DNA of 64,000 nt from an uncultured Dehalococcoidales bacterium (lineage in GTDB: Bacteria; Chloroflexota; Dehalococcoidia; Dehalococcoidales; UBA5760): NCBI GenBank assembly GCA_964472625.1, contig CAYYLM010000004.1, forward strand, positions 27,422 through 91,421. Reading direction: 5' to 3'. Below the pieces are notes generated by a model. That model made no database searches, was not told where the DNA came from, and saw nothing but the letters and a program-made list of their open reading frames with translations. The stretch's first letter is position 1. Each line of letters opens with the position of its first letter. Below are positions 1,521 to 57,318 of the stretch, piece by piece. The position numbers and the translations under genes are program-made.

Positions 1521-2468
1521 TCAGGAAGCGGACAGCTCCGCTATCATCTCCCGAACCAACCTTATTGCCTCGGGGTGTCGCATAATCATCACATCCCCAC
1601 CTGCCAGAAGCAGTATCACAGCCGATATTGCCTCCATCAAGATACCCCTCTTTTTAGCATCACCCAGCGTGGGGTCTTCCTCAGTGGGGATATGGACCTC
1701 CTTCGTCTTCCACACCTCTTTAGCTACATTGCAGATAATGGGAAACTGGAGCTTATCATCCTGCTGGGTCAGCCCCGCCATCCTCATTCTCTCCATCACC
1801 GAGTAACAATACTCAATCCCATAGCCGATACCACTGACCGTAGGGTCAATTGTCAAAAGTTCATCAGCGACACCGAGATTACCGAGCAGAATATTAAGCT
1901 GCTTGGCTAGATTGATATCTATCGGGGAGGAGGCAACCACCGTATGCTGGTAGGCAATCGCCGAGGCACCAATCTTCTTATGGTCACCCTCCTCAACCGG
2001 CCCAAGTATCAGCCGCCTGTGCTGGCAGGCCTCAGCCACCTGCCTTAGTACCTCAGTATCCTTCTCATGATTGGCCGTCCCCCACACGATTAAGGGGACG
2101 GTGATGGCATCGGCCACCTTCTTGACAATCTGAGCCGCCTCTTCAGCCCCGCGGTCAAGACCATTGGGGTCAGTGCTCAGAAGCTGCAGGCAGATCATCT
2201 CCGCCCCGTAATCCTCGATACACTTTTTCGCCCAGACTACCGGGGCATCGGTTACCCCGCTGAAGGGCTCCAGAGCGGCTGGTGCCCACTCTTCAGGCGG
2301 GCAGTCATAGACCTCCATAGCGATTCTGGGAAGACGCGGCATCTCACCTTCCCAGAGGTAGAAAGGATAACAACTCTCGCCACCAACTGTAATTGCCTTA
2401 TCCCCTTCGCCCAGTTTTATTTCTTTAATTTGACCACTATATTGGGTTTTTGGAATCTCAAACGCCAT
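1521..2468 (-). CDS. acsD: Corrinoid iron-sulfur protein small subunit (AcsD/CdhD-like)
   Basis: The 315-aa ORF has the length and TIM-barrel-like sequence of CFeSP delta subunits (MAFEIPKTQYSGQIKEIKLG...). A GGTGGTGAG Shine-Dalgarno lies upstream. It sits between cooS and folD in a Wood-Ljungdahl context. Confidence 0.8.
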   Translation of the reverse strand: MAFEIPKTQYSGQIKEIKLGEGDKAITVGGESCYPFYLWEGEMPRLPRIAMEVYDCPPEEWAPAALEPFSGVTDAPVVWAKKCIEDYGAEMICLQLLSTDPNGLDRGAEEAAQIVKKVADAITVPLIVWGTANHEKDTEVLRQVAEACQHRRLILGPVEEGDHKKIGASAIAYQHTVVASSPIDINLAKQLNILLGNLGVADELLTIDPTVSGIGYGIEYCYSVMERMRMAGLTQQDDKLQFPIICNVAKEVWKTKEVHIPTEEDPTLGDAKKRGILMEAISAVILLLAGGDVMIMRHPEAIRLVREMIAELSAS

Positions 2469-2483
2469 TTCTCACCACCTTAC

Positions 2484-2720
2484 TCAGGCTGGATTTTTTC
2501 TCTTTTCACTGCCATACCAATCTTCACCATACCAATATCGCTCGCCAGTCTGTAAATATTTAAGCTTTTCTTCACGGTCCGCCAGTTTCTGTCTCCACTT
2601 CCCCAGCTCCTCCCCCTCAGGCTGACCCACCTCATAGGTTGCCCCCAACATCTCCACCTTCTCTCTATTGGGAGCAGCCGCTTCCTCAATCTGGTACTCG
2701 ATCTCTTTATCTTTCCCCAT
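2484..2720 (-). CDS. Hypothetical 78-aa highly charged, Trp/Tyr-rich protein
   Basis: The ORF fits tightly between the folD stop (2733) and the acsD start (2468). A strong AAGGGGGA Shine-Dalgarno lies 4-5 nt before the ATG at 2720. I recognise no family. Confidence 0.5.
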   Translation of the reverse strand: MGKDKEIEYQIEEAAAPNREKVEMLGATYEVGQPEGEELGKWRQKLADREEKLKYLQTGERYWYGEDWYGSEKRKNPA

Positions 2721-2732
2721 CTTTCCCCCTTT

Positions 2733-3620
2733 CTATTTCAAACCAGCCGCCAGCTTAGCCGCCTTTAAGGTATTTAGCATGAGCATGGTTATGGTCATTG
2801 GACCCACACCACCAGGCACCGGGGTAATCGCCCTGGCCTTTTCCTTAACCGCATCAAAGTCGACATCGCCAACCAGGATTCTCTTACCCTCTGCTGTCCT
2901 GCCGACCTCGTTCACGCCGACATCGATGACCACCACCCCTTCCCTGACCATGTCGGCGGTAACCGCCTTCGGCTTACCAGCAGCTACTATTATTATATCA
3001 GCCCGCTTGGTGTGAAGTGAAATATTTTGAGTCCGGGTATGGCACACGGTAACGGTAGCATTAGCCCCCTCCTGCTTTTGAAGGAGAATATTGGCTATTG
3101 GCTTACCGACGATGTTACTTCTGCCGACCACGACCACCTCGGCCCCCTCAATCTTGGTACCGGAGCGAATCAATAACTGCTGGATACCGGCGGGGGTACA
3201 GGGTAAATAATCAGGTTTCCCAATCATCAGCCTACCCAGATTCACCGGATGAAAGCCATCGACATCCTTCTTGGGATTAATGGCATAGAGGACTTCCTCC
3301 TCGTTCAGGTGCTTGGGCAGGGGTAGCTGAACCAGGATACCGTGAATCTTGGGGTCTTTATTGAGCTTGTCGATGAGTTTCATGAGCTCTGCCTGGGTGG
3401 TCTCCACCGGCAGGTCGTACCTCTCCGAGTAGATACCCAGCTCTTTCGAGGTTTTCTCCTTAGCGCCGACGTAGACCTGCGAGGCCGGGTCGGCACCAAC
3501 GAGGATGGTAACCAGGCCGGGCACGACGTTGTGCTTAGCCTTGAGGTCGGCAATCTCTTTTTTCAATTCTTCGCGAATCTGCGCGGCGACCTCAGCGCCT
3601 TTGATCAGTTGTGCTGTCAT
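2733..3620 (-). CDS. folD: Bifunctional 5,10-methylene-tetrahydrofolate dehydrogenase / methenyl-THF cyclohydrolase
   Basis: 295 aa. Contains PGLVTILVGADPASQVYV, GILVQLPLPKHL, a VVVVGRSNIVGKP Rossmann motif and PVPGGVGPMT. Confidence 0.95.
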   Translation of the reverse strand: MTAQLIKGAEVAAQIREELKKEIADLKAKHNVVPGLVTILVGADPASQVYVGAKEKTSKELGIYSERYDLPVETTQAELMKLIDKLNKDPKIHGILVQLPLPKHLNEEEVLYAINPKKDVDGFHPVNLGRLMIGKPDYLPCTPAGIQQLLIRSGTKIEGAEVVVVGRSNIVGKPIANILLQKQEGANATVTVCHTRTQNISLHTKRADIIIVAAGKPKAVTADMVREGVVVIDVGVNEVGRTAEGKRILVGDVDFDAVKEKARAITPVPGGVGPMTITMLMLNTLKAAKLAAGLK

Positions 3621-3700
3621 TTTCGCCTCCCTTACATCCTTATTCTAGCCCCAGGGCATCTCCGAGGCCTTAAATCTCTCCTCTGTATCGTGACCCAGTC

Positions 3701-4453
3701 TTAATTAAGAAGCCTAGCCATTAAATCATTAACCGCCCCGACTGCTGGGGAGCTATCGGGTAGGTCAAGTAAAGACTTTAGTTCAAGGTCATACTGGTAG
3801 ACTTCATCGTCTAAAGGTATCCTAGCCGCCGGCTCAATCCTCAGTCGGGACAGCTCCCCTATAACGAACGGAGCTAGCTCAGGGGGAGCAAAATTAATTA
3901 TCACCGAGCGCCTCTTTACCTGCAGCCCAAGCTCGGCGACTAACTCGGCTATCTGAGCCACCGCCCGCACCCCCTTCACCGAGTGGTTAGACACCATCAA
4001 TAGTTCATCAACATTCTGCGTGGTGCGCCGCGACAGGTGCTCCAGCCCAGCCTCATTATCCATAACCAGGTAAGCGTAGTTATCAGCCAGCCGGTCAATA
4101 ACCTTCCTCAGGATAAGGTTAGGATAGCAGTAGCACTCCGGCCCCTCACCCCGACCCATCGCCACCAGGTCCAGTCTCTGACTCTCAACTAAAGCCTGAT
4201 TCAGTCTATACTCCAGATAGTTCTCCTTGGTCATGCCGGGAGGGATGTTTATCTTCTCCTCATTGAAGGCAGCGATTATGGAGCCAACGGTCTCTTTAAC
4301 ACTCAAACCCAGGCTCTCACCCAGGTTGGCGTTAGGGTCAGCATCAACCGCCAGGATTGGCCCGGTGCTATTCTGCATCAGGTAACGAATGACTAAGCTG
4401 GCCACTGTAGTTTTCCCGCTGCCACCCTTGCCGGCTACCGCAATAGAAACCAT
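3701..4453 (-). CDS. cooC: CooC/AcsF-type Ni-insertion ATPase for CODH/ACS maturation
   Basis: 250 aa. Has the deviant Walker A GKGGSGKTT and a CYCYP metal-binding Cys-x-Cys motif (MinD/CooC family). Its start overlaps the stop of the upstream gene. Confidence 0.8.
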   Translation of the reverse strand: MVSIAVAGKGGSGKTTVASLVIRYLMQNSTGPILAVDADPNANLGESLGLSVKETVGSIIAAFNEEKINIPPGMTKENYLEYRLNQALVESQRLDLVAMGRGEGPECYCYPNLILRKVIDRLADNYAYLVMDNEAGLEHLSRRTTQNVDELLMVSNHSVKGVRAVAQIAELVAELGLQVKRRSVIINFAPPELAPFVIGELSRLRIEPAARIPLDDEVYQYDLELKSLLDLPDSSPAVGAVNDLMARLLN

Positions 4454-6399
4454 CAGCCAGCCAGCCTCCTAGCCACCGAAGGGAACTCCTCGGTGTGGGT
4501 ATGAGGCAGGAACAGCGCCGCCACATAATTATTCATAAAATCGGCCCGTTCGCTAAGCTCCAGGTTGGTCATCATCATGGCCACCTTTCGGGCATCATCG
4601 AGCAGATCAGTAGAGAAGGAGGTCAATCTGGCTCCAGTGAGCGAGCCGTTACCAACAAAGATGAATCTATCCTGAGGTATATCAGGCAATAGACCAATGG
4701 TAATACTTTTTTCGATGTCAATATGACTACCAAAGGCGCCAGCGATGATTACCTGCTCCAGATCAGATAACTTGAAACCTACGCTCTTGGTCAGCGTCTG
4801 GCAGCCGGCATACATGGCTGCCTTAGCCCGGATAAGATTGTCAATGTCCACCTCGGTAATGACGATATCCTGGCCCGTCTCGGTTTCACCTGCCCTGGCA
4901 AGAACGTACTCATAGCCATCACCGCCTTTTCTAATCCGGCTGGTTTTAAGGTCAGCGTTGAACTTGCCGTTCTGGCCGATGACCCCCGCCTCCAGCAGCC
5001 CGGCGATAGTGTTTATCAGCCCTGAGCCGCAGATTCCCCTCGGTTTTTCCCCACCGATAGTGTGCAGGCTCGGCTCTAGAGTTTTCGGGTCAATGTCAAA
5101 GTCCTGAATCGCCCCCTTAGTAGCAATCATGCCGTGCTTAATGCCGCCACCCTCAAAGGCGGGGCCCGCCGAACAAGATGCGGTTACCATCCAGTCTGCG
5201 TTACCCACCACTACCTCACCGTTGGTACCAATATCCATATACAGGGTTAGCTTCTTCCTCTGGTGCAAGCCAACCCCAACCACCCCGGAAACGATATCGC
5301 CGCCAACATAACTGGCTACTGAAGGAAAGGTGAAGAGATAGACGTGTTTTCCTACCCGGATACCCAGAGAACGTGCCTTTATCGGGGGAATGAAGCTAGC
5401 CACCGGCGTGTAGGGGGCTAGCCTCAGGTATTTAGGATCAAGCCCGAGGAGAATATGAGCCATGGTGGGATTACCGGCCACAATCATATGCCCAATATGC
5501 TTAATCTCAACCTGACTCTGGCTCACCAGTTCATCGATAATCTGGTTAATCGTGGTTACCACAGCCTGCTGCAATTTCTTAAGACCACCTGGCGTCTGGG
5601 AGTAGCCGATGCGGGTAATAACATCAGCCCCGTAGCTTATCTGTCCGTTATATGCCATACCCTCGGCGAGGATCCGGCCCCGGTTCAGGTCAAGCAGTTG
5701 ACCACTAACCGTAGTCGTGCCAATATCAAAGGCCAGGGAATAGTGCTTCTGGGCGGTATTGCCCACCTCGACCTTTATTACCGTCGGCTTACGCTTGTCG
5801 GCTTTAGTCTTGACCGCCTTGACCAGGGTGCTAACCGTAACCTGCCCACCCTTTTTGCGCAGGACTTGTGGCAGGTTCCCGACCACGTCGAAGTCCACCG
5901 AAACGTTACTGACATTGCAGCGCCGCTTTAGGCCTCGCAGTAGTCGTGATAGATCACTAACGTTATTTCTTATGGTTGGCGGCGTTAGCTCAACATAACA
6001 TTTACTCAAGGGCGGATTGAAACCCCACCCCGTAGCGACTAGCTCGGCAGCTTTAGCCTCAGCTGTGGCCATCTTCATCTCCCGGCTGAGAACCGCCGTC
6101 TCCAGCCGTGATTCTACCGGAATATCAACCACTAGGTCACTGAGTACCCGGCTCTGACAAGCCAGCCGGTAGCCCTGCTGGTATTCTTCGGCAGAAAGCT
6201 TATCACTACGGGTACTTTCTACCTCTCCCTTCCTAATCAGAACCTTGCAGGTGCCACAGACACCGTTACCCCCACAGGCAGCGTTAATATGCACTCCCGC
6301 AGAGAGCGCCGCCTTAAGCAGACTCCAACCTTCCGGTACGTTAATATCAACATTATCCGGGCTGAAGTGAACCCTCAGCTTCCTCTTTACGTTCGCCAT
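4453..6399 (-). CDS. Reductive activator of the corrinoid Fe-S protein (RACo/AcsV-like): 2Fe-2S ferredoxin domain plus ASKHA ATPase domain
   Basis: 648 aa. The N-terminus carries a plant-type ferredoxin motif (ACGGNGVCGTCKV ... LACQ). It is followed by an actin-fold ATPase-like region (FDIGTTTV, MDIGTNGE). The size matches RACo proteins and the gene lies in the WL cluster. Confidence 0.8.
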   Translation of the reverse strand: MANVKRKLRVHFSPDNVDINVPEGWSLLKAALSAGVHINAACGGNGVCGTCKVLIRKGEVESTRSDKLSAEEYQQGYRLACQSRVLSDLVVDIPVESRLETAVLSREMKMATAEAKAAELVATGWGFNPPLSKCYVELTPPTIRNNVSDLSRLLRGLKRRCNVSNVSVDFDVVGNLPQVLRKKGGQVTVSTLVKAVKTKADKRKPTVIKVEVGNTAQKHYSLAFDIGTTTVSGQLLDLNRGRILAEGMAYNGQISYGADVITRIGYSQTPGGLKKLQQAVVTTINQIIDELVSQSQVEIKHIGHMIVAGNPTMAHILLGLDPKYLRLAPYTPVASFIPPIKARSLGIRVGKHVYLFTFPSVASYVGGDIVSGVVGVGLHQRKKLTLYMDIGTNGEVVVGNADWMVTASCSAGPAFEGGGIKHGMIATKGAIQDFDIDPKTLEPSLHTIGGEKPRGICGSGLINTIAGLLEAGVIGQNGKFNADLKTSRIRKGGDGYEYVLARAGETETGQDIVITEVDIDNLIRAKAAMYAGCQTLTKSVGFKLSDLEQVIIAGAFGSHIDIEKSITIGLLPDIPQDRFIFVGNGSLTGARLTSFSTDLLDDARKVAMMMTNLELSERADFMNNYVAALFLPHTHTEEFPSVARRLAG

Positions 6400-6433
6400 C
6401 TACATCCAATTTCCACAAACGATGAAAGTTTTG

Positions 6434-8197
6434 CTAGAAGAGCCCGGTGACCTTTCCCGTGTTGACATCGACATCAACCCTTCTAAAAGCCGGATCGGAA
6501 GAGGTTCCCGGCATCAGGCTGATGGCGCCAGCGCAGGGACAGAGGAACTTGGCTCCAGAATAGATTAAGACATCGCGGATGGGTAGCGCCCACCCCTTGG
6601 GGACACCCTTGAGCGCCGGCTCATGAGTCAGGCTGAGGTGCGTCTTCACCATCATGGTAGCGTAGTCGTCATACTTAGAGTCAGCCTCAAACATCTTGGC
6701 TTTAGCCTCAGCCTCAGGGCTCCAGGACACGCCATCAGCGCCGTAGACTACCTGGGCAATCTTGCCCACCCTCTCCCTCAACTTCATATCCAAGGGATAG
6801 AGAAACCGGAACTCATTCTCATCCTGACAGGCTTCCTTTACGGCATCAGCCAGTTCCAGGGCACCGTCACCGCCATCGGCCCAGTGAGTGGACACAGCAC
6901 AACGAGCCCCGGCTGCCTCAGCCGCCTTCCTAACCATAGCGACTTCACCCTTGGTATCGGTATGGAAGCTGTTGATACACACCACTGGGTTGATGCCAGA
7001 CGTGCGGATGGTGTTGATATGGTGCAGCATATTGGGGAGACCCTTCTCCAAGAGTCCGAGATCCTCTTTAGTGTAGGCATCAGGCAGAGGTAAGCCAGCG
7101 ACTACCTTGGGCCCACCACCATGCATCTTCAGAGCCCGAATGGTGGTCGTAAGCACCGAGACATGCGGCTTTAAGCCACTCAAGCGGCTCTTAACATTCC
7201 AGAACTTCTCAAAGCCGATGTCAGCGGCAAAGCCACTCTCAGTAACGTGGTAATCAAATAGCTTTAAGCCAACCCGGTCGCCAATAATGGAGGACTGACC
7301 GACGGCGATATTGGCAAAGGGGCCGGCATGCACCATACAGGGCTGATATTCCACCGTGCAGGACAGGGTGGGATTGATGGTATTACGCATCCAAGCGGTC
7401 ATGGCACCCCCCACCTCCAGGTCGCCGGTGGTAATTGGGTTACCCTTTTTATCGAAGGCAACCGTAATCTTATCCATTCTCTCCCTGAGGTCCGCCAGGT
7501 CTCTCACGATGGACAACATGGCCATAAGCTCCGAGCTCACCGTGATACCGAACTTGGACTGCATCATATAGCCGTTCATGCGACCGCCGAGACCGATGAT
7601 GATTTCGCGGAGACTCTGGGCGCAGAAATCTATTACCCAGCCCATCTCCACGCGGGTCGGGTCAACATCCAGGCGGCGCATACCGGTACGCCTGGCTAGC
7701 TGCTCATCGTCGTAGTTACGCTCGTGCTGCATCCGGGCGGTAAGAGCAACCATCGCCAGATTATGGGCATTGGTAATATCGTTAATGTCCCCGGTAAGAC
7801 CCATGGAGAACTCGGTCATGGGAATAAGCAGGGCGTTACCGCCACCAGCGGCGGTGCCCTTGATATTCATGGTGGGACCCCCTGAAGGCTGACGAATACA
7901 GCCGCCAACATTAAGCCCCCGCTTGCCCATCCCCTCCAGGATACCCATGGTGGTCGTCGTTTTCCCCTCACCAAGTGGTGTCGGCGTTATCGCCGTCACC
8001 TCAACATACTTGCCATCCGGTTTAGCCTTGAGGCGCTCGATAATCTTCAGGAAATCTAGTCGGCATATCCTCCCAAAGGGGATTATCTCGTCCTTCTCCA
8101 AGTTCAACTTCTCACGCCACTCATCCGGGGTAGGCATGTTAGCTTCAGCTGCCTCGGCAATCTGCCAGTCCTTCAACTTTACCGCATCGTAAGCCAC
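6434..8197 (-). CDS. fhs: Formate--tetrahydrofolate ligase
   Basis: 587 aa. Contains the P-loop-like [13 protein letters not shown] and conserved FANIAVG and HGGG regions. GTG start preceded by AAAGGAGG. Confidence 0.95.
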
Positions 8198-40842: not shown

Positions 40843-40917
40843 GCCAGCGTAGCTCAGTGGTAGAGCAGCGGTTTCGTAAACCGCCGGTCGTCAGTTCGAC
40901 TCTGACCGCTGGCTCCA
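40843..40917 (+). tRNA. tRNA-Thr (anticodon CGU), CCA encoded
   Basis: Hand-folded cloverleaf. Acceptor stem GCCAGCG/CGCTGGC. D-arm AGCTCAGTGGTAGAGC. Anticodon stem-loop GCGGT-TTCGTAA-ACCGC. T-arm GTCAG-TTCGACT-CTGAC. Then discriminator T and CCA. Confidence 0.9.
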
Positions 40918-41943: not shown

Positions 41944-42527
41944 ATGGTCAGAGTAGAAGGCATTTTCGAAGGGGGATGGGTGCAGGTACACATCTATGCA
42001 CCCACATATGCTCTCTCACATATCTGCACTGGATATGTCCACTGCCTTCCGGGCCGTCGCCTTTTAGACCAGCTCAACGATGTATTTCCGGGTACAGTGT
42101 CCGAAGCTAAGGATTTCCTTCCTTCAGGGAAGGTGAACTGCAAGCTCTAGGAAGAGAAAGTGAGACAGCGAAATTTGTCTGCTTTAATAAGGCCAGCATC
42201 CTCTTTGTAAAAGAGTATGAGGAAGGCCAGACTAGAGGGTTTGGCGGTAAGCTTGAGCATAGTGGGTATCCCTACGTCCCCAAGTCACCTGTAGCGGTAA
42301 AGCTTTACTTGCCGTTTTATGTTCTGACTGGCTATTTACACTGTGCTGAAGGGCAACGTGTCTCGGATGTGATGAACCTACCATTGAGATTCCTCCCTAT
42401 TACCAATGCCGAGATAAGTCCGGCAGTGGGTAGCAGTCAGCAGTCAGGGGTCAGCTTTCTAGCGGTGAACAAGGGTCAGGTAGTCCTTTTAGAAGAACTA
42501 GAGCCAAGGTTGGGAGAGTCGGAGTAA
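41944..42527 (+). pseudogene. Tandem-duplicated-domain protein of unknown family, interrupted by a single-base frameshift near 42120-42126
   Basis: ORF 41944-42150 (frame 1) and the open frame 42111-42527 (frame 0) encode two copies of one ~95-aa module. Compare TGYVHCLPGRRLLDQLNDV...DFLP with TGYLHCAEGQRVSDVMNLPLRFLP. The second half has no ATG or Shine-Dalgarno of its own, and joining the frames restores DFLP.REGELQALG parallel to RFLPITNAEISPAVG. Confidence 0.6.
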
Positions 42528-42836: not shown

Positions 42837-43211
42837 TCAACGTGCTCCATTCAGTACGGGAGTCACTACGTTCATCAGTTCCTGGGTGGTGAAAGGCTTG
42901 GTTATGTATCCATCGGCGCCCATTTCCTCGGCAAACTTCTTGTTGAGTTCATGGCCGACGGCAGTAAGCATAATCACCGGAATTAGCTTTGTTACCTGGT
43001 CAGCCTTTATTTGCGAGCAAGCGGTATAACCGTCCATCCTTGGCATCATAAGATCCATAAGGATGAGATCTGGTCGTTGCCCTTTAGCAATATCTAACGC
43101 TTCCTTCCCGTCATTTGCTTCGAGAACAACGTAGTCTTTCTCCAGCATCCTTGTCACTGTTAATCTTACCCCTGGTTCGTCGTCAGCTATGAGTATTCTT
43201 TTCTTGTCCAT
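42837..43211 (-). CDS. Stand-alone response regulator receiver (CheY-like)
   Basis: 124 aa. Contains DDEP, the phospho-acceptor context LILMDLMMP, and the conserved T and K (KPF). Confidence 0.9.
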   Translation of the reverse strand: MDKKRILIADDEPGVRLTVTRMLEKDYVVLEANDGKEALDIAKGQRPDLILMDLMMPRMDGYTACSQIKADQVTKLIPVIMLTAVGHELNKKFAEEMGADGYITKPFTTQELMNVVTPVLNGAR

Positions 43212-43233
43212 TTGATTTACTCCTAGTTCTTTA

Positions 43234-44328
43234 TCAGTTGCTAACAGTCTCCTGAGGCGAGCTTACGTCAACCTGGGATTGAAGAGACTGCCGCAGTTTT
43301 GTCGGATTACCACTTCTCAATAAGGCTTCTTCCAAAGTAACCATGTTCCTCTTTACCAAGTCAGCTAACGCCTGATCCAGGGTCTGCATCCCCTCCAATT
43401 TGCTCATCTCCATATTAGGGTGTATTTCGTATAGTTTCTCGTCGCGGATGAGTCTTCTGATGACGCTGTTGGCAATCATAATCTCAAAGGCGGCTATTCG
43501 TCCTCCATCAATGCGTGGTAGGAGGGCTTGCGATACTACCGCTTCTATTACCTGAGATAACTGCACTCTGATTTGCTGTTGTTGACCATGCGGGAATATG
43601 TCAATTATGCGGTCAATAGACTGGGGAGCGTCGATAGTATGTAACGTGCCAAGCACCAGGTGCCCGGTCTCAGCTGCGGTGATCGCGGTGCTTATCGTGT
43701 TCAGGTCACGCATCTCCCCGATAACAATTACATCCGCATCATGACGGAGAGCGTGTATTACCGCGGTAGAGAATGATTTGGTATCGCCCCCCAGGTCTCG
43801 CTGCAGGATAAGGCATTTCTTATCGCGGAATATGAATTCGATAGGGTCTTCAATAGTAATGACACTTCGCGTCGCATTATCATTAAGATGACTGAGCATT
43901 GCTGCTAGGGTAGTCGACTTACCACTGCCGGAGGGGCCGGTTACAAGAATAAGCCCTCTCGGCTTAAGTATAAGCTCCTTAAGAATCTGGGGCAGCCCCC
44001 ATTCATCAATAGACGGAACGTAGAATGGTACAAACCGGAAGGCAAGACCAATGACCCCTCTCTGCCGCAAGGCATTGACCCGGAATCGAGCTAGTCCAGG
44101 AACCGAATAAGCAAAATCCAGCTCCCATTCTCTATCGAAAACTGACCTCTGCTCTTCAGTAGCAACTCGTTGCAAGGTGAGTTCGACATCTTTGACGGTC
44201 ATTGGTGGTAGATCTTCCTGCGGCGTAAGCACACCATCAATACGGAGCACTGGTGGGCGGCGCACCGTGAGGTGTAAGTCTGAAGCGCCTTTATTTACCA
44301 TCAACTTGAGAAGTTCATCTACTTGCAT
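43234..44328 (-). CDS. pilT: PilT-family hexameric ATPase (type IV pilus retraction ATPase family)
   Basis: 364 aa. N-terminal GASDLHL, Walker A GPSGSGKST, Asp box ITIEDPIEF, Walker B VIVIGEMRD, His box TGHLVLGTLHT. SVIRRLIRDEK occupies the position of the AIRNLIRE motif. Confidence 0.9.
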   Translation of the reverse strand: MQVDELLKLMVNKGASDLHLTVRRPPVLRIDGVLTPQEDLPPMTVKDVELTLQRVATEEQRSVFDREWELDFAYSVPGLARFRVNALRQRGVIGLAFRFVPFYVPSIDEWGLPQILKELILKPRGLILVTGPSGSGKSTTLAAMLSHLNDNATRSVITIEDPIEFIFRDKKCLILQRDLGGDTKSFSTAVIHALRHDADVIVIGEMRDLNTISTAITAAETGHLVLGTLHTIDAPQSIDRIIDIFPHGQQQQIRVQLSQVIEAVVSQALLPRIDGGRIAAFEIMIANSVIRRLIRDEKLYEIHPNMEMSKLEGMQTLDQALADLVKRNMVTLEEALLRSGNPTKLRQSLQSQVDVSSPQETVSN

Positions 44329-45427
44329 GTTGGCTCCCCATAATCATACGCACTAATTGACTTTCTTGCTCATCCTGATAGCTATTTCTGATTGACAGTA
44401 TTTCGTCGGTAATGGCCAGGGAGGCATCTACAATATCGGGATCAAAATGACTGCCCCGACCCTGCCTGATGATATCTAGCGATTCTTCTACCGGTAGCGC
44501 TTTGCGATAGGGCCGTGTTGAGGTCAGGGCGTCGAAGGTATCAGCGAGGGCGGCAATGCGTCCCGCCAACGGTATCTCTGAACCCCCGAGTCCCTGGGGA
44601 TACCCACTTCCATCCCATTTCTCATGGTGGGTCAGGGCAATAATCTCCGCCAGCTGGATGAATTCGGCGTCAGAGCCCTGTAGAATCTCTGCCCCGATTA
44701 CGGTGTGTTTCTTCATAACTTCCCACTCATCTTCATCCAAGTTGCCGGTCTTGAGCAAGATGTGATCCGGAATGCCAATCTTACCCACATCATGCATCGG
44801 GGCAGCGTACAGTATATTTTCCACTTCTCTGTCCTCTAGGCCCAACCTACGGGCAATAGCGGCACTGTATTGGCTCATCCGTTTAATATGAGCGCCGGTA
44901 TCCTCATCTCTGTACTCTGCCGCTCGTGCCAGTCGGAGGACGGTGTCCAGCGAAGCTAGCTTCAGCTTCTCAACCGCCTGCTTGAGCTCTGCGGTTCTTT
45001 CGGCGACCATCTCCTCTAGGTGCTGCTGGTAAGCCCTGTTGTCGAGTTCCAGCCTTCTTTTCTCCAGGGCCCGCTGCACACTGATAGCTACTTCATCCAG
45101 GTTGAAGGGTTTAACCAGATAGTCGTGGGCTCCATCTTTCATGCATTTAATAGCGGTAGAGGTATCGGCAATCGCGGTAGCCATGATGACCGCTGTGTCC
45201 GGATACATGTGTTTTATCTCAGGTAACAGTTCAACTCCCGATTTACCCGGCATCTTGATATCCAGAACCACCAGCTCTGCCGGACTCTTAGCGAGCCTGT
45301 CCAAAGCCTCATTGGCACTGCTGGCTTCCCCACACAGGTAGCCCTCGGCTGACAGCCTCTGCCGTAAAATTCTCCTCACCACCGGCTCATCATCAACAAT
45401 GAGCACTCTATGCTTTTTGGCAGTCAT
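44315..45427 (-). CDS. Response regulator with an HD-GYP c-di-GMP phosphodiesterase output domain (RpfG family)
   Basis: 370 aa. N-terminal REC (VLIVDDEP ... VVLDIKMPG ... KPF). C-terminal HDVGKIGIP ... HHEKWDGSGYP motifs. Confidence 0.9.
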   Translation of the reverse strand: MTAKKHRVLIVDDEPVVRRILRQRLSAEGYLCGEASSANEALDRLAKSPAELVVLDIKMPGKSGVELLPEIKHMYPDTAVIMATAIADTSTAIKCMKDGAHDYLVKPFNLDEVAISVQRALEKRRLELDNRAYQQHLEEMVAERTAELKQAVEKLKLASLDTVLRLARAAEYRDEDTGAHIKRMSQYSAAIARRLGLEDREVENILYAAPMHDVGKIGIPDHILLKTGNLDEDEWEVMKKHTVIGAEILQGSDAEFIQLAEIIALTHHEKWDGSGYPQGLGGSEIPLAGRIAALADTFDALTSTRPYRKALPVEESLDIIRQGRGSHFDPDIVDASLAITDEILSIRNSYQDEQESQLVRMIMGSQHASR

Positions 45428-45472
45428 TTCCCTCTTCGCCTTAAAGCTTCTCCGACTATGCTTTTCAGTTCA

Positions 45473-45820
45473 TCAGGGGGTGAACGGTTTGGGTAAGAAC
45501 AGCCTACCGCTTTGCTCCAGAAAGCTCTTCGTGCCTCCGCTGAGTAGATCCCCGGTGGTTAATATGACCCCGCTTACCACTTCGGGATGCCTTTCCAAAA
45601 TAGACTGGTAGATTTGTTTCCCGTTCATCACCGGTGTCCTGATATCGATAAGAACCAGGTCGTATTCTTTTTCCTCTAGCATACCCTGAGCCAAGCTACC
45701 GTTAGCGGCAGTATCGACCATGAATCCTTCGCCGCGAAGCGTCTGCAAGCAGACCCGGCTAATAACAGGCTCAGCTTCAACTACCAGTACTCGAACTGCC
45801 TTTGTGCTTGCACTCTTCAT
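45473..45820 (-). CDS. Stand-alone receiver domain protein, C-terminus truncated by a frameshift in a homopolymer run
   Basis: 115 aa REC (VLVVEAEP ... LVLIDIRTP ... KPFTP). It is a paralog of 55185-55580. A shifted frame after the G5 run at 45476-45480 encodes PDELKSIVGEALRRRGK and ends in an ATGA overlap with the next gene at 45424-45427. Confidence 0.85.
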   Translation of the reverse strand: MKSASTKAVRVLVVEAEPVISRVCLQTLRGEGFMVDTAANGSLAQGMLEEKEYDLVLIDIRTPVMNGKQIYQSILERHPEVVSGVILTTGDLLSGGTKSFLEQSGRLFLPKPFTP

Positions 45821-48800
45821 TCTATCTCCCCTTGGCTGAGGGGCAGCTCGACAATAAAAGTTGCTCCTTTGCCCGGTTCGCTTTCGGCGTATATCTGGCC
45901 GTTGTGGGCACTGATTATCCCGTGACAGATGCTAAGACCCAGCCCGGTCCCCTTGCCCACCTCCTTGGTGGTGAAGAAGGGATCGAAGATATGCCCCAGG
46001 TTCTCCTTGGGTATACCTAGGCCATCATCAGTAAAGGAGGCTCTGGCATAATCTCCTGCCCGCTCAGTCGTAACCGTTAGCGTGCCCTTATTATGTGCCT
46101 CAATCATGGAATATTCAGCGTTGATGACGATGTTGAGGAAGACCTGCTGCAGCTGAAAATAGTCAGCCATGACTTGGGGCAGATCAGGCGCTAAATGTGT
46201 AACCACCTCAATATTGTTCACTCTCTCTTCATAGGCACGAAGCTCGAGCACCTTGTTTATTACGTCATTTATGTTTAAAAGATCCTCGGCTGGAGAGTGC
46301 TTGCGGGCAAAAGTGAGCAGATTTTTCACAATATTAGCGGCGCGTTGTGCCTCACTGTATACCAGGTTCAGGTCTTCTTTGATATCCTCGGGAACGTCCC
46401 TTCGGACGAGGAGCTGGGCTAGCCCGATCACCCCGGTGAGCGGGTTATTTAGCTCGTGGGCGATACCCGATGCCAGCTCACCAACCGATGCCAGCCGGTC
46501 GGTTAATACAAGCTGCTCCTCCATACTCTTACGCGCGGTTATATCCCGGGTGACGGCAATAAACCCTACGGGATTTCCGGCACCATCTTTAAGCAGAGCC
46601 GCACTTAACTCAGCCGGAAATTCGCTACCATCCTTCTTCAAGAATGTATACTCGATAGTCGCAGACTGTCCTCTTTCCAGCGTCTCTTTGAGGCTCTCCA
46701 TAGCCCGAATGTGGTCTTTTTCGGCTATCAGCTCAAAACTACTCTTCCCAAGCATCTCCTCTTTACTATCATAGCCGTGCATGCGTACCGCCGTTTCATT
46801 CGTGTCCAGAATGGTCCCATCCATGTCAGAAACAGTAATCCCTTCGGGAACTGACTTGAACATGAGGCGTAGCTTTTCCTCTGATGCCTTTAACGCGTTT
46901 TCCGCCAGCTTACGTTCGGTGATGTCGCGGATAAATACAAACAGTTGCCCTTCCCTGACATCAAGATAATTTACGCTAATCTCAACATCAATTATCCTGC
47001 CGTCTTTACGTCTATGCTGGGTCTCAAAACGGTCGTAACCTTGCTTCACTATTTTCTTTATACGTCGAGCAGTCTCCTTGGGAGTTTCTACGGCTTCTAT
47101 ATCCGGTATGGACATTTCAAGTAGTTCCTCGTGCGTATAACCCACCATCTCACAATATGAGTCGTTGACTTCGAGTAATCTGCCCGCTAGATCGGTAATC
47201 CAGAAGCCGTCGACGGCCGTTTTTATGATTGCCTGGTGTTTCGCCTCAGCCTGTTTCCGTTCGGTGATATCTCTAATGTAAACAACGTTAGCAGTTCCCC
47301 CCAGATATTTTGTGTAGGCACTGGTTACTTCAATGGGAACCTGAGTGCCATCCTTTCTGATAATCTGTATCTCGAAGAGACCAGGGATAGCTTCACCCCT
47401 CATCTTTCTTCGATGCCTTTCTTGAGAAGCCTTGCGGTCTTCGGGACGGACGAGATCAAAAAAGGGCATCTTGAGCAGTTCCTCTCTCGAGTAGCCGGTG
47501 ATACGAGGCCACTCTCTGTTGAAGAAGACATGGACAGCATCTCCATGCTTATCATCCTGCAGCATGACGACGGCCTCCCCAACCCCAGCACCCAGATCTA
47601 CGACAGCCCGATATCTCTCCTCTGACTCACGCAGGGCTTCCTCCGCCTGCTTGCGCTCGGTGATGTCCTCAACTATTCCCTGGGCTTCGGTTACTTGTCC
47701 GGAATCGTCCGATAAGGTTTGCAAAGCCTCCCTAACCCACGCAGTACTCCCATCCTTACGAACTATGCGGTACTCTCTAGTAGCTGAACATGTATGCTCA
47801 GAAGTAACTTCTTCCACATCTTCTAACACCCGCGGCAAATCGTCCTTATGAATAATATCTTGCCATTTGACCTTCCCCTTCATAAAATCATCTTCAGTGT
47901 AGCCAGTGATCTCCTTGACACGGCCATGCAGAAAACTAGCCTTGAAATTTTTATCACCACGGTAGGCTATACCACTAAAGTTCTGGACAAATGAACGATA
48001 ACGCTCCTCACTCTCCCGCAGTGCCTCCTCTGCCTGCTTGCGTTCGGTGATGTCCTGTGAAAAGCCTATTAGGCCAACTGGAATGTCATCTTTGTCAAGA
48101 ATCGGAACCTTATCTGTCTGCACCCATCTTATGCCGCTTGCGGATTCATATTGTTCTATTATGTTGAATTTAGGGCGTCTTAGTTTAAGAACCTCCTGGT
48201 CATCGTTTGTCATCTCTTGTGCGATCCTAGCTGAACAAAGATCGAAAACTGTTTTCCCCACAAATTCTTCTTCAGACACTTCATACGCTTCAGCAAGTGC
48301 CCTATTGACGCGCACAAATCTTCCTTCTTTATCTTTGTAGAAAACTAATATTGGTGAAGAGTCGATAATGAGCTTCAATTCCTGCTGTTCTTCCCTCAAA
48401 TCTTCTTCCAGTCTCTTGCGCTCGGTGATGTCCTCGACGATGGCATCAACGTACAGTATCTTGCCGGCATCGTCTCTCAGGGCAGCAACGGTGTCCAGCA
48501 CCATTATCTCACTGCCATCCTTCCTCCTACACTTAATTTCCTTGGTTACCACCCCTTTAGTTGAGGCTACTTCTTTCATGAGGGCTTGTCTGTCTTCACG
48601 ACGAATATAAAGGTCTTCTACGCCCATCGCCATTAGCTCATCTCTGGAATATCCGGTGATTTCCTCAAAGGCCGGATTCATTTCTAGGATTTTCCCCGGA
48701 GTATCCGGCGTCGAGCGGAGGATGCCAAGTCGTACGTTGTTTACCAAGCTACGATACCTTTCTTCACTCTCTTTGAGTGCCTCCTCGGCCTGCTCGCGCT

Positions 48801-50427
48801 CGACACGCATGCGCTGCGCTTTGATACCGTACGCTAGGTCATCTGCCAGTTCCGTAAGCAACTTTACTTCACCTTCTTCAAACGGATCCGCCCCCGCACT
48901 GTATATGATTAGAACCCCGCTGGGCTGACTGTTAATACTTAACGGAAGGGTGATTAGGGATGTGTAGCCCCGCTCGTTTGCTTCAGCGTGAAGAGGAGCA
49001 TGGCTGGTGTCGCTGTGAATATTCCTTAAGACTAGCGGTTTACCTGAATTCACAGCCTCCTTAAACATGGCATGGTCATCTTCATTCTCGGCCCAGGCGA
49101 CGTCGTGATGACTACAATCTCCGTTATCATGCCACGCTTCTGCTGCCGGGCGTACTGCTAGCCCGCCTCTTGGGTCAATCAACCCCACGCGTGCCCCACA
49201 ATATTCACCGTAGGTTACAATAATCCGGCAGATACCTTTCAGCAACGTCGGTTCATCGGTAGATCGTACCAGTATCTGGTTACATTCACTGAGCGTCTTA
49301 AGTGCCCGATTAGCGCTACGCAGAGTATTATTTGTTCGGACCAGGTTTTCTGTCATTTCATTGAAATGTTGTGCCATCATCCCAATTTCATCGTTGGATT
49401 TTACCTCGGCTCTCTGCGAGACATCGCCTTCCCTAATCTTATCGGCAACGCTAGCCAGACTTTGAATTGGTTTGCTGATGCTTCGAGCCAAGTAGAGAGA
49501 GACTGTCACGACGAGGGCGGCGGCAAGGCCTATGGTGAGCGCCGTCAAATTGTACAAACGAGTCACCGGGGCAAGGGCTTCAGCCTCGTCTATTTTAGCT
49601 ACCAGACCCCAGTCTACCTCCGGAATATACTGGGCGGCGGCCAGGACCGTCTCACCGCGGTAGTCGACGGCATTGGTGAATAGTCCCTCGTTTCCTAATA
49701 ACGCCTGCACTGTAGGCGAATCCAGATTATATATTGACATCGTCCGATGAAGCTCAGCCTCAGGGGCAAAGTGAAGTGGAGAGATAAACAGGACGTTGCC
49801 TTCTTGGCTTCTCTCGGCGAGGAGCGTTTCCCCTGTTCTACCCAGTCCAGTATAGTCTCCTAATACTGAAAGAATGTTATCGGCGCTCGACCTGATTATT
49901 ACCACACCGATAAGCTCGCTTTCTAAATACAGCGGACCGGACAGATAGTTTTTTAACTCCTCGTCTCCATTGAGAAAAAGCAAGGCGCCGCTGTCTTCCC
50001 CAGCACGCCCTTGTATAAAGGCTTCCTCATTGGCAAGCGATGAACCAATTATTGTTTCGCTCGTGGAAGCAACCACCTCTCCATCAAGGTTTAGCACATA
50101 TATCTCCTCAAAGTCTTTGATTGAGGAACGGGCATCAAGCAGTATCGTATTCATCCTTTCCTGGTCGGCAGTGCTATTCTGTTTGAGATAGCTATCGAGG
50201 CTAATCCGTAGCTGAGTTCTACTGGACACTAGGGCTAGTCTCTCCAGGTTCTGCGATATTATGCTTTCAATGCGGTGCTTCTGGATTACGGCAACAGACT
50301 GGAGTTGATTGAGGACTCCGTTGGTAACACTTTCCTTAGCATTGTTATATGAGAAAACACTTAGTATCACAAGCGGAACTAGGCTCGCTAATATAAAAGC
50401 CAGCGCTAACTTTGGCTTAATCTTCAT
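45817..50427 (-). CDS. Large membrane sensor histidine kinase: TM, extracytoplasmic Cache-like region, TM, HAMP, GAF, six PAS modules, DHp, HATPase
   Basis: 1536 aa with two TM helices flanking a ~280-aa region. HAMP region ([18 protein letters not shown]...) and a GAF-like segment. Six PAS-like modules each end in D-I-T-(E/A)-R-K. H-box [11 protein letters not shown]; N and G boxes ([21 protein letters not shown]). Confidence 0.9.
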
Positions 50428-50518
50428 GTTTTACTCACCAGTCCTTCGTCCCGACTCTTCATTTACATGGTTATCACTTTAGCCAAGTCTTGACCTTTCG
50501 TAGTCAGCCCAACCTCTG

Positions 50519-50725
50519 CTAGGTTTTAGTTACCCGATTGGCTTCGCTTCTTAACCTAAGTAGATCCTCTTCAGTGAAGAGCCTCCACCCCCTTCTGTCT
50601 CTCATTCCAACGTCTGGTAACAACCCCTCCCTAAGCCAGCGAAAATAGGTGTTTCTGCTAATACCAGCCAACTTGCATGCTTCAGCGGTTCTGTAATAGT
50701 CCTTACCGTCTACAGAGATGGTCAT
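50519..50725 (-). CDS. Small excisionase/MerR-superfamily HTH (HTH_17-like) DNA-binding protein
   Basis: 68 aa. YYRTAEACKLAGISRNTYFRWLREGLLP ... RGWRLFTEEDL fits the excisionase-type HTH. GGAGGA Shine-Dalgarno. It lies 91 nt upstream of the kinase gene on the same strand. Confidence 0.7.
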   Translation of the reverse strand: MTISVDGKDYYRTAEACKLAGISRNTYFRWLREGLLPDVGMRDRRGWRLFTEEDLLRLRSEANRVTKT

Positions 50726-55184: not shown

Positions 55185-55580
55185 TCATTTTTCCGCCCGT
55201 CTCAAAGTCTCCCCGACGATGGTTTTCAGCTCATCAGGAGTGAACGGTTTAGCCAGGACCGGTCGGCCGCTCTCCTCCAGAAAATTCCTGGTCGTGCTAT
55301 CGATCACGTCTCCGGTAGCGAATATTACCCTATCTACCAGTTGAGGATACTGGCTCTTTATAAACTGATAAAACTCCTTACCGCCCATTACCGGCATCTT
55401 GATATCCAGAATTACCAGGGTGTAGTCCCTTTCCCCCAGCATCTCCTGGGCCACCTCTCCATTGATGGCCGTATCAACCTCAAACCCATCTCCGGTAAGA
55501 ATCCGGTGACAAACCTGGCTAATGGCCGGTTCGTCTTCAACAACCAAGATTCTCTTTGCCCCGCCAGCTGAGTTTTGCAT
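55185..55580 (-). CDS. Stand-alone receiver domain protein (intact paralog of 45473-45820)
   Basis: 131 aa. ILVVEDEP ... LVILDIKMP ... KPFTPDELKTIVGETLRRAEK. Confidence 0.9.
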   Translation of the reverse strand: MQNSAGGAKRILVVEDEPAISQVCHRILTGDGFEVDTAINGEVAQEMLGERDYTLVILDIKMPVMGGKEFYQFIKSQYPQLVDRVIFATGDVIDSTTRNFLEESGRPVLAKPFTPDELKTIVGETLRRAEK

Positions 55581-55611
55581 TTTAGCTCTCCTTCCCTATC
55601 AGTATCAGTGC

Positions 55612-57318
55612 TCACTGGATAGGTAATTCCACGGTAAAGGTAGCCCCTTTGCCCAATTCGCTTCTGGCATATATTTTGCCGCCGTGTTCCGTAATTATCC
55701 CGTGACAGATGCTTAAGCCCAAGCCGGTTCCTTTACCTACCTCCTTGGTAGTAAAGAAGGGATCGAAAAGGTGCCCCAGGTCTTCTTCAGGAATCCCGGG
55801 GCCATCATCAGTGAAGAAAGCCTTAACCACATTACCTACCTTTTCTGTAGTAATCGTCAGAGTACCCTTGCTATGCGCCTCAACCATAAAATGCTCGGCA
55901 TTGATAACGATGTTGAGGAAGACCTGTTGCAGCTGAAAATAGTCCGCCATGACTTCGGGGAGGTCAGCCGTAAACCGGGTCTTGACCCGAATGTCACTTA
56001 CCCTTTGCTCATAAGCACGTAGTTCCAGAACCTTCCCAATAATATTATTTATGTTCACCAGCTCCTTTACCTGAGCGTGCTTTCGAGCGAAGGTGAGCAG
56101 ATTTTTCACCACCCCGGCGGCACGCTGAGCCTCACTGGAGACAATTCTTATGTCTTCCTTAATATCTTCGGGAATATCCTTACCCAGGAGGAGCTGAGAA
56201 AAGCCGATAACACTGGTCAGCGGATTATTTAGCTCATGGGCAATGCCTGAAGCCAGCTCACCCACAGAAGCCAGCCGGTCAGTAATAATAAGCTGCTGTT
56301 CCATCTGCTTGCGCTTGGTAATATCCCTGATATAGACGACGTTAGCCGCTTTGCCCCAGTATCTGGTGTAACCACTGGTAAGTTCAATAGGAACCTCGGT
56401 TCCGTCCTTTCTAATGATGGATAACTCATAAAGTCCGGGGACAAGTTCACCCTGCATCTTTCGGCGATGTCGCTCCATACTTTCGGCTACATCACGGGAG
56501 TGAACCAGGTCAAAAAACGACATGGCGCGCAGTTCCCCACTGGAGTAGCCGGTAATGTAACACCACTGGTCGCTGACAAAGGTATGAACCCCTTCTACCT
56601 GCTCAGTGTCTTGCAACATGATGACCGCCGCCCCAAACTGACCACGTAGCTTTACCAGAGCGCGATATCTTTCCTCTGACTCCCTCAATGCCCTTTCGGC
56701 CCTCTTGCGCTCAGCAATTTCCCGCTGCAGTTCCTCATTGGCAGCCTGAAGCTCATCGTTCTGAGCCTCGAGTTGCTCTGTCCCTTCTTGAAGCTCCCGC
56801 TCCATTCGCTTGCGTTCGGTGATGTCCTCGAAAATGGAATCAAAGTGTAGGATCTTACCGGCATCGTCTCTCACGGCAATAAGTGTGTCCAGCACCGCTA
56901 TCTCACTGCCATCATTCTTCCGCCAGTGAAGTTCCCGGGTTACCGTCCCTTTAGCTGAGGCCAACTCTTCCATGAGAGCCTGCCTCTCTTCACAATGGAC
57001 GTAGAGCTCTTCTATATCCATCGCCAGCAGCTCATCCCTGGAATATCCAGTAATCTCCTCAAAGGCCGGATTTACTTCCAGGATTTTCCCCGGAGGCCCC
57101 AGCGTCGACCTGAGGATGCCCAGTTGCACGTTGTTTACCAGGCTTCGGTACCTTTCTTCAGAGGTCCGCAAAGCCTTCTCCAGCCGTGTCCGCTTAAGTT
57201 CCAATTTCTCAAGTTCAGCCACGCGCTGGCGCAGTGTCTCTAACTCACTAACAAGCTGCTCTCTACCTTCGACAACGCCTTTCATGCCCACACCCACCAT
57301 CAAGCCTATTATTGCCAC
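55612..57318 (-). CDS. Soluble PAS-PAS histidine kinase, mosaic paralog of the 1536-aa kinase
   Basis: 568 aa. Coiled-coil N-terminus, two PAS modules, H-box [11 protein letters not shown] and an HATPase domain. Long runs are identical to parts of 45817-50427. The start (GTG 57318) is uncertain. Confidence 0.9.
   Translation of the reverse strand: MAIIGLMVGVGMKGVVEGREQLVSELETLRQRVAELEKLELKRTRLEKALRTSEERYRSLVNNVQLGILRSTLGPPGKILEVNPAFEEITGYSRDELLAMDIEELYVHCEERQALMEELASAKGTVTRELHWRKNDGSEIAVLDTLIAVRDDAGKILHFDSIFEDITERKRMERELQEGTEQLEAQNDELQAANEELQREIAERKRAERALRESEERYRALVKLRGQFGAAVIMLQDTEQVEGVHTFVSDQWCYITGYSSGELRAMSFFDLVHSRDVAESMERHRRKMQGELVPGLYELSIIRKDGTEVPIELTSGYTRYWGKAANVVYIRDITKRKQMEQQLIITDRLASVGELASGIAHELNNPLTSVIGFSQLLLGKDIPEDIKEDIRIVSSEAQRAAGVVKNLLTFARKHAQVKELVNINNIIGKVLELRAYEQRVSDIRVKTRFTADLPEVMADYFQLQQVFLNIVINAEHFMVEAHSKGTLTITTEKVGNVVKAFFTDDGPGIPEEDLGHLFDPFFTTKEVGKGTGLGLSICHGIITEHGGKIYARSELGKGATFTVELPIQ

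Follow-up and report, generated by a model that had tools for sequence, protein, structure and literature searches.

A PilT-family ATPase gene and a dedicated receiver gene form the core of a putative control cassette in Dehalococcoidia

We have analyzed a 64-kb stretch of DNA (from contig CAYYLM010000004.1; hereafter the window, meaning the whole stretch at its full length) in which six co-directional minus-strand genes at 42837-50725 include one for a PilT-family ATPase. The six genes encode, in order, a small helix-turn-helix (HTH) protein, a large membrane histidine kinase, a single-domain receiver (the small receiver), a response regulator with REC and HD-GYP domains (REC-HD-GYP), PilT, and a second single-domain receiver of 124 amino acids (REC124). 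Judged from related loci, the conserved core of this cassette is the HTH gene followed, with or without intervening genes, by the adjacent pair PilT-REC124, and the kinase, small receiver and REC-HD-GYP make up a recurrent, movable insert. We think it probable that this is a lineage-specific control cassette, in which a bona fide pilus retraction ATPase is gated by a dedicated receiver and takes in two-component and cyclic di-GMP (c-di-GMP) signals.

Genes and motifs of the cassette

The list of open reading frames (ORFs) of the window placed six ORFs of one direction exactly where an initial annotation of this DNA had put them, and Pfam and NCBIfam profile searches returned the domains that it had proposed (HTH_17-like, Cache-HAMP-GAF-6xPAS kinase, REC, REC-HD-GYP, PilT and REC). 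The features are as follows.

50519-50725, minus strand: MerR/HTH_17-type small DNA-binding protein, 68 amino acids (Pfam HTH_17, 33 bits; MerR_1, 32 bits)
45817-50427, minus strand: membrane sensor histidine kinase, 1536 amino acids (Pfam TM-dCache_1-TM-HAMP-GAF-6xPAS-HisKA-HATPase_c, where TM is a transmembrane segment)
45473-45820, minus strand: single-domain receiver of a type cognate to the kinase, 115 amino acids as called; 45424-45820 when frameshift-corrected (Pfam Response_reg, 54.6 bits)
44315-45427, minus strand: RpfG-type REC + HD-GYP response regulator, 370 amino acids (Response_reg, 102.7 bits; HD_5, 122.6 bits)
43234-44328, minus strand: PilT-family hexameric ATPase, 364 amino acids (TIGR01420, 435.8 bits, above the cutoff of 319.1)
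42837-43211, minus strand: single-domain receiver REC124, 124 amino acids (Pfam Response_reg, 105.9 bits)

The identity of PilT follows from its passing the family model and from its having kept all of the ATPase and PilT signature motifs. Residues 3-342 aligned with positions 2-341 of the 343 in TIGR01420, i.e. over the full length of the model, and the Walker A (GPSGSGKS), Asp (VITIEDPIE), Walker B (DVIVIGEMRD) and His (TGHLVLGTLHT) boxes are intact. The C-terminal sequence VIRRLIRD at residue 289 is a conservative variant of the AIRNLIRE motif, a hallmark of PilT proteins. Scores against the solved PilT proteins of Geobacter, Aquifex, Thermus and Pseudomonas were 333-358 bits.

The 1536-amino acid protein has the features of a class I histidine kinase, namely a HisKA domain (57.7 bits) with its phospho-acceptor His and an HATPase_c domain (86.9 bits); the H-box, N box and G-boxes are intact, with GTGLGLS present. 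Hydrophobic segments at residues 3-30 and 291-317 lie on either side of the Cache domain, and the PAS content amounts to 6 PAS_9 stretches. In an alignment with E. coli CheY, the phospho-acceptor set DD, D, T, K was complete in REC124 and in the REC domain of REC-HD-GYP.

REC-HD-GYP contains the HD motifs PMHDVGK and HHEKWDGSGYP, and it scored 228.7 bits against the NCBIfam model 'response regulator c-di-GMP phosphodiesterase', which is under the cutoff of that model. Its best solved relative is the active HD-GYP enzyme PmGH (4mcw, 217 bits), followed by the cGAMP-specific HD-GYP 5z7c (140.9 bits). Aligned with 4mcw, for which the metal ligands are E185, H189, H221, D222, H250, H276, H277 and D305, the protein keeps the HD, H, HH, GYP and D ligands and has Asp for Glu at the first position. 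The presumed substrate is c-di-GMP, as against, for example, 3'3'-cGAMP.

The 68-amino acid protein matched MerR_1 over residues 11-59 and aligned with the DNA-binding domain of the MerR-family structures 5e01 and 5d8c; solved MerR proteins were matched over their first 50 residues only. MerR-family members combine the HTH with a C-terminal coiled-coil or effector domain, and this protein consists of the DNA-binding domain alone, so that it seems better named a stand-alone HTH_17/excisionase-like protein.

Between successive genes, from the HTH gene through REC124, there are a 91-nucleotide (nt) gap, a 4-nt overlap, a 45-nt gap, a 14-nt overlap and a 22-nt gap. These spacings are as initially listed, with the difference that the 45-nt gap before REC-HD-GYP is a frameshift artefact, as seen from the corrected reading frame and from the 130-131-amino acid length of the orthologs. 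The 115-amino acid ORF ends directly after a run of five C residues (45476-45480). When one C is dropped, the frame after KPFTP reads PDELKSIVGEALRRRGK up to a stop codon, by which 17 C-terminal residues are regained and an ATGA overlap with the start codon of REC-HD-GYP is restored. PDELKSIVGEALRRRGK agrees with the C-termini of the orthologs in four related contigs, which have 4-nt overlaps with each neighbour. After correction, a stop/start codon overlap is present at every junction from the kinase gene through pilT, and we count the 4-nt and 14-nt overlaps in support of translational coupling from kinase to PilT; the 14-nt overlap between the HD-GYP gene and pilT is also found in the related contigs L087 and L086. 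As called, the small receiver has lost its last helix and is short of the complete five-stranded alpha/beta fold, and its acidic pocket is E-A in the window and E-D in orthologs. The frameshift may be a real mutation, which would make the gene a pseudogene, or a homopolymer or assembly error. A second pair consisting of a PAS histidine kinase (568 amino acids) and an intact 131-amino acid receiver is encoded at 55185-57318 (minus strand) of the window and is paralogous to the cassette kinase core and small receiver, with 74% nucleotide identity over 300 nt.

Conservation of the cassette in relatives

Related contexts were gathered by exact look-ups, by a scan of one genome per species and by annotation with the window's own proteins, and came from NCBI, ENA and JGI. 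PilT homologs at least 77% identical to the window protein fell into more than 120 database clusters, a number which at this level of identity points to strong purifying selection on PilT. The source names were Dehalococcoidia, in keeping with the Dehalococcoidia-like lineage that had been proposed for the window.

The same six-gene order occurs in four other metagenome contigs, one from ENA (L086) and three from different JGI samples (L087, L088 and L089), with PilT 88-91% identical; the block is accordingly not unique to this strain. The L086 contig stops in a 33-amino acid partial ORF at the REC124 position. In the window REC124 comes directly after PilT, and so does an ortholog of it (63-84% identical) in 16 other distinct contexts with PilT at least 75% identical, wherever downstream sequence is present; relatives with PilT 72% identical or less have no REC124 ortholog. 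At the head of the cassette, an HTH_17/MerR protein (orthologs 44-99% identical) was found in 12/12 contexts having upstream sequence.

The interval between HTH and PilT is variable. It is empty in L001, L007, L008 and L010, and it holds a kinase in L011, a kinase and a receiver in L004, a kinase and REC-HD-GYP in L006, L009 and L174, and several receivers in L005 and L012. Kinase orthologs, with variable sensor regions, were seen in L004, L006, L009, L011, L086-L089, L174 and L175. The HTH-kinase-REC-HD-GYP unit of L175 is located downstream of PilT-REC and not upstream. Co-location that persists through such reshuffling argues for a function of the cassette as such rather than for inherited synteny.

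The shuffled and expanded order in L175 (9215-18149) is HTH-REC-PilT-REC-HTH-HK-REC_HD-GYP-REC-HK-REC-REC_HK, where HK is a histidine kinase; its downstream HK-REC-REC_HK trio is also present in L006, L009 and L174.

These data bear on the possibility that the six genes were brought together by chance or by a strain-specific rearrangement and that their order has no functional meaning. Genes outside the cassette vary in nearly every context, and some copies have mobile-element genes in their vicinity (L087 an IS110 transposase, L004 an integrase fragment), as such an origin would predict. Against this, the same order recurs in four independent contigs and the core in 16 contexts drawn from three databases, and the stop/start overlaps are conserved as well. 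In view of this conservation we regard chance juxtaposition as refuted, the probability that we would still grant it being negligible.

In the sister clade of this PilT (L016, L017 and L026; PilT 67-68% identical), PilT is directly preceded by a gene for a 7TMR-GAF-GGDEF-HD-GYP protein. HD-GYP enzymes of two unrelated architectures thus adjoin PilT, from which it appears that a link to c-di-GMP has recurred independently in this PilT lineage. The sister-clade protein, 7TMR(HisKA_7TM)-GAF-GGDEF-HD-GYP, is 837-843 amino acids long and is encoded at 7331-9862 in L017.

The recurrent six-gene order, the invariant PilT-REC124 pair and the two HD-GYP architectures beside PilT bear out the earlier suggestion that PilT is genetically hard-wired to a phosphorelay/c-di-GMP module. 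That both single-domain receivers might modulate PilT, as was also suggested, holds up in part: REC124 is a conserved partner of PilT, and the other receiver is part of the kinase unit, which is optional, and its gene is frameshifted in the window.

Several contexts place HTH and receiver domains together. In L012, HTH_17 is fused to receivers in two proteins (REC-HTH_17 at 2231-3073 and HTH_17-REC at 4490-5032) encoded just upstream of REC-HD-GYP-PilT-REC, and in L013 and L175 an HTH gene and a small receiver gene stand side by side, directly upstream of PilT. These fusions and adjacencies suggest that the stand-alone HTH protein and a receiver together make up a split DNA-binding regulator. 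The L012 cassette contains five receivers and two REC-HD-GYP genes, and its PilT is split by a frameshift into 6473-6709 and 6715-7527.

The same arrangements in L012, L013 and L175 would also be expected if the wiring were transcriptional only, that is, if the kinase and HTH protein controlled pilT expression and the receivers and HD-GYP acted elsewhere (on global c-di-GMP, as phosphate sinks or on the HTH protein) and never on PilT. Single-domain receivers often serve as phosphate sinks in two-component systems, which is in line with this explanation. Yet REC124 stays with PilT in the minimal cassettes that have neither kinase nor other receiver (L001, L007, L008 and L010), and it has been kept at the level of identity given above, whereas one would expect a phosphate sink or a partner of the HTH protein to accompany the kinase or HTH gene and not PilT. 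Direct regulation of PilT by a receiver protein, moreover, has an experimental precedent (PMC13507683), described below. Taking both sides into account, we consider transcriptional wiring alone to be unlikely.

Type IV pilus machinery in Dehalococcoidia

The initial annotation had recognized no pilus genes in the window, and our searches agree with it on this point. Pfam scans of about 50 other window ORFs gave no T2SSE, T2SSF, PilM/N/O, Peptidase_A24, N_methyl or secretin match, a six-frame search of the 64 kb gave no prepilin leader motif, and PilT was the sole match in a search of the 64 kb for T2SSE-type Walker A sequences. It had gone on to call PilT an orphan, in a lineage not known for twitching motility, and to suggest that it could have a non-pilus role. 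The term orphan is apt for these 64 kb only, and the view that PilT is a probable non-pilus motor of a pilus-free lineage was not supported, as published surveys and the loci that we retrieved both show type IV pilus machinery in Dehalococcoidia.

As to the published record, expression of pilABCMOTX was reported for a metagenome-assembled genome (MAG) of Dehalococcoides (PMC13085523), and D. mccartyi 195 has a PilT gene, DET0922 (PMC5102406). The MacSyFinder table of a 2025 survey lists 19 Dehalococcoidales genomes and scores a type IV pilus system, under the label T4bP, for 10 of them, among which are all of the D. mccartyi and Dehalogenimonas genomes that it contains (PMC12488501 supplement).

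Pilus genes were also seen close to relatives of the cassette PilT. In L017, a Dehalococcoidia MAG (UBA5760), a prepilin with the leader QKG|FTLMELLIVVAILG (QKG|FTLMEL) is encoded at 983-1375 (minus strand) and PilD at 1787-2551, 8 kb from the HD-GYP-PilT pair, and this PilD is present in L026 too. Outside the class, the PilT proteins nearest to that of the cassette, those of L020/L022 (63-66% identical), close a secretin-PilB-PilC-pilin operon. That the sister clade and the nearest outside relatives lie beside pilins, PilD or whole pilus operons supports a role of the cassette PilT in pilus function. An unclassified bacterium (L063:8153-18739) has secretin, PilT, a PilT paralog, REC, PilB, PilC and pilins in one operon; its REC protein, of 123 amino acids and 40% identical to REC124, is placed after PilT/PilU, an independent case of a single-domain receiver beside retraction ATPases and in this respect a precedent for the mechanism proposed below.

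PilD homologs were numerous and were named Dehalococcoidia or Dehalococcoidales. Through one of them we reached a complete locus (L091) with PilB, PilC, a pilin, three unknowns, PilM/N, a PilT paralog, a pilin, a TackOD1 protein and PilD, and a metagenome scan with Dehalococcoidia PilC retrieved 80 more loci of this type. One PilC of the L091 type bears the NCBI name Dehalococcoidia, and two complete type IV pilus loci, L091 and P0381, are so named.

The L091-type loci (L091:1-10777 and L093-L173) share a long PilB of 770-830 amino acids with two N-terminal Mrr_cat-like (restriction-endonuclease-fold) domains, a fused PilM/N, a PilT paralog of their own and a TackOD1/Mrr_cat protein beside PilD. 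In a Dehalococcoidia MAG, a prophage-like block (L090:13149-20762; a capsid-like protein, Gp80 and many small ORFs) is found a few kb from PilD.

A number of observations weigh against our reading of the cassette as a control device for pilus retraction. Pilus genes were found neither in the 64 kb of the window nor, in the contexts with a PilT identity of 75% or more, at distances of up to 10 kb from PilT. None of the 80 pilus loci from the PilC metagenome scan came from cassette-bearing samples or contigs, nor did any of them have, within 10 kb, a PilT of the window type, REC124 or HTH; cassette and pilus locus were not found together in one genome. The Dehalococcoidia pilus loci carry a PilT paralog of their own, 46% identical to the cassette PilT, which could then be a second, specialized motor in the same cells or could belong to lineages distinct from those of the pilus loci. 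Roughly half of the Dehalococcoidales MAGs in the survey table have a score of zero for all pilus systems (PMC12488501 supplement), a result that may or may not be due to MAG incompleteness. The cassette contains no PilZ domain, and 37 full-length PilB proteins of Dehalococcoidia pilus loci have a GSPII domain without the c-di-GMP-binding MshEN motif, so that no c-di-GMP receptor is evident for the cassette. Finally, the direct contact of REC124 with PilT is putative, which also favours the purely transcriptional wiring considered above. We had considered action of the HD-GYP protein through an MshEN c-di-GMP-binding domain of PilB, and dropped it in view of the missing motif in the 37 proteins.

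Some of these observations are what one would expect if the PilT paralog and its receiver were instead a signalling-gated hexameric ATPase acting on something other than a type IV pilus, namely the absence of nearby pilus genes in every close relative, the separate PilT paralog of the pilus loci and the many Dehalococcoidales MAGs with no scored pilus system; the free movement of the cassette between genomic positions fits as well. The sequence relationships of PilT itself argue otherwise. Against solved retraction ATPases, the cassette PilT outscored the paralog encoded in the pilus loci (358 versus 314 bits), and it has retained an AIRNLIRE-like motif and the kinship with pilus-linked PilT proteins noted above. 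We know of no function other than that of a pilus motor for members of the PilT/PilU family that score above the TIGR01420 cutoff. A non-pilus motor therefore seems to us quite improbable, and we are just as doubtful about its particular form in which PilT-REC124 would be a self-contained, phosphorylation-gated motor without a canonical pilus, either in genomes without PilB/PilC or as a second motor on another substrate. If this form were true, the kinase/HD-GYP insert would be a sensory front end and the whole a signalling-controlled ATPase system of a new kind.

Proposed mode of action

Under the reading that we prefer, control of pilus retraction, a two-component unit made up of kinase, single-domain receiver and REC-HD-GYP would have been inserted between HTH and PilT in this genome and its closest relatives. 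The kinase would sense an extracellular ligand through its Cache domain and intracellular or redox cues through GAF and the six PAS domains, and would phosphorylate the receivers. Phosphorylated REC124 would bind the PilT hexamer and so tune retraction, by altering either the ATPase activity of the hexamer or how it engages the pilus base. Phosphorylated REC-HD-GYP may lower c-di-GMP or, as RpfG does, nucleate a protein complex on PilT. The HTH protein, possibly with the small receiver, would set transcription of the cassette, and the pilus machine (PilB, PilC, PilM/N, pilins and PilD) would be encoded elsewhere in the genome.

Comparison with known systems

In Xanthomonas campestris, the sensor kinase RpfC phosphorylates the REC-HD-GYP protein RpfG, and the output of RpfG reaches PilT/PilU through GGDEF and PilZ proteins (PMC3749722). 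The cassette resembles that pathway in combining a sensor kinase, a REC-HD-GYP regulator and a pilus retraction ATPase, and the 370-amino acid protein has the architecture of RpfG; in the sister clade, GGDEF and HD-GYP are fused and encoded next to PilT, which may be compared with the RpfG-GGDEF pathway. The Xanthomonas Rpf genes, however, are dispersed and the link is made by separate GGDEF and PilZ adaptors, whereas in the cassette the REC-HD-GYP gene overlaps pilT by 14 nt and there is no PilZ gene. Nor is the cassette kinase of the hybrid RpfC type, having Cache, GAF and PAS sensors instead, and the dedicated single-domain receiver is an additional and more conserved partner.

The mechanism that we propose for REC124, direct binding and stimulation of the motor by a receiver-only protein, is that of Xanthomonas DrdR, an output-less receiver protein that stimulates the ATPase activity of PilB and PilT by binding to them (PMC13507683). 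An orphan, DrdR has two REC domains, of which one is degenerate, and according to that paper its gene is not located beside pilT (PMC13507683). REC124, unlike DrdR, is a single canonical receiver and always adjacent to pilT, and the likeness between them is known at the level of the REC fold.

The Chp receivers PilG and PilH of Pseudomonas aeruginosa are CheY-like single-domain proteins that bias pilus extension versus retraction (compare PMC7029496). Their input comes from a CheA-type chemosensory array, and their genes are found with pilI/pilJ/chpA and not with pilT. The cassette, in contrast, has no CheA, CheW or MCP, and none was found among the scanned window proteins.

More than one PilT paralog is known elsewhere, as in the pair PilT/PilU, PilT1-4 of Geobacter and PilT1/2 of cyanobacteria. 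The cassette PilT is probably likewise a paralog beside the PilT of a pilus locus such as those of the L091 type, and the cassette points in this way to a likely second PilT paralog in Dehalococcoidia. It differs from the multi-PilT systems in that the PilT outside the pilus locus is the one with the more canonical sequence.

Receivers and HD-GYP proteins are already known to control pilus retraction in a few proteobacteria, in which the genes are scattered and the contacts were found by interaction screens. In searches of the literature on PilT or type IV pili in Dehalococcoidia, Dehalococcoides and Chloroflexota, we found no description of the cassette. What sets the cassette apart is the presence of all partners in one operon, with a receiver invariably adjacent to pilT and a small HTH gene at the head. 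We therefore see the cassette as a new wiring of such control and not as a categorically new system; a new category would be at hand only if the non-pilus explanation were true. The minimal three-gene version (HTH, PilT and REC) offers a compact system in which control of a retraction motor by a receiver could be tested directly, in an abundant, bioremediation-relevant class of the subsurface for which little is understood of surface attachment and possible DNA uptake.

Other features of the window

The remaining ORFs encode Wood-Ljungdahl enzymes, housekeeping proteins, an OpuA-type transporter, an ECF sigma factor with DUF5667 proteins, a MarR regulator, a cupin, a PKD protein and the second PAS kinase/receiver pair mentioned above. 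Rfam scans of the window gave tRNA only, and promoter and terminator scans gave counts no higher than those for shuffled sequence. A genomic island bounded by tRNA-Thr (40843-40917) was considered and rejected, as no repeat of the tRNA end was found.

Downstream of the cassette is a 1.3-kb gap with two small paralogous ORFs on the plus strand (41944-42150 and 42309-42527), convergent on the cassette. The second of these matches DUF6812; neither is present in any related locus, and they are unrelated to the cassette. The segment 23800-26500 has a GC content of 0.42-0.47, compared with about 0.50-0.55 in its flanks, and contains almost no ORFs of at least 100 amino acids and no Rfam match. The Wood-Ljungdahl set at 1521-8197 (minus strand) comprises CdhD, FolD, a CooC-like ATPase, the RACo corrinoid activator and formate-tetrahydrofolate ligase, a gene content that is consistent with an acetogenic type of Dehalococcoidia metabolism.

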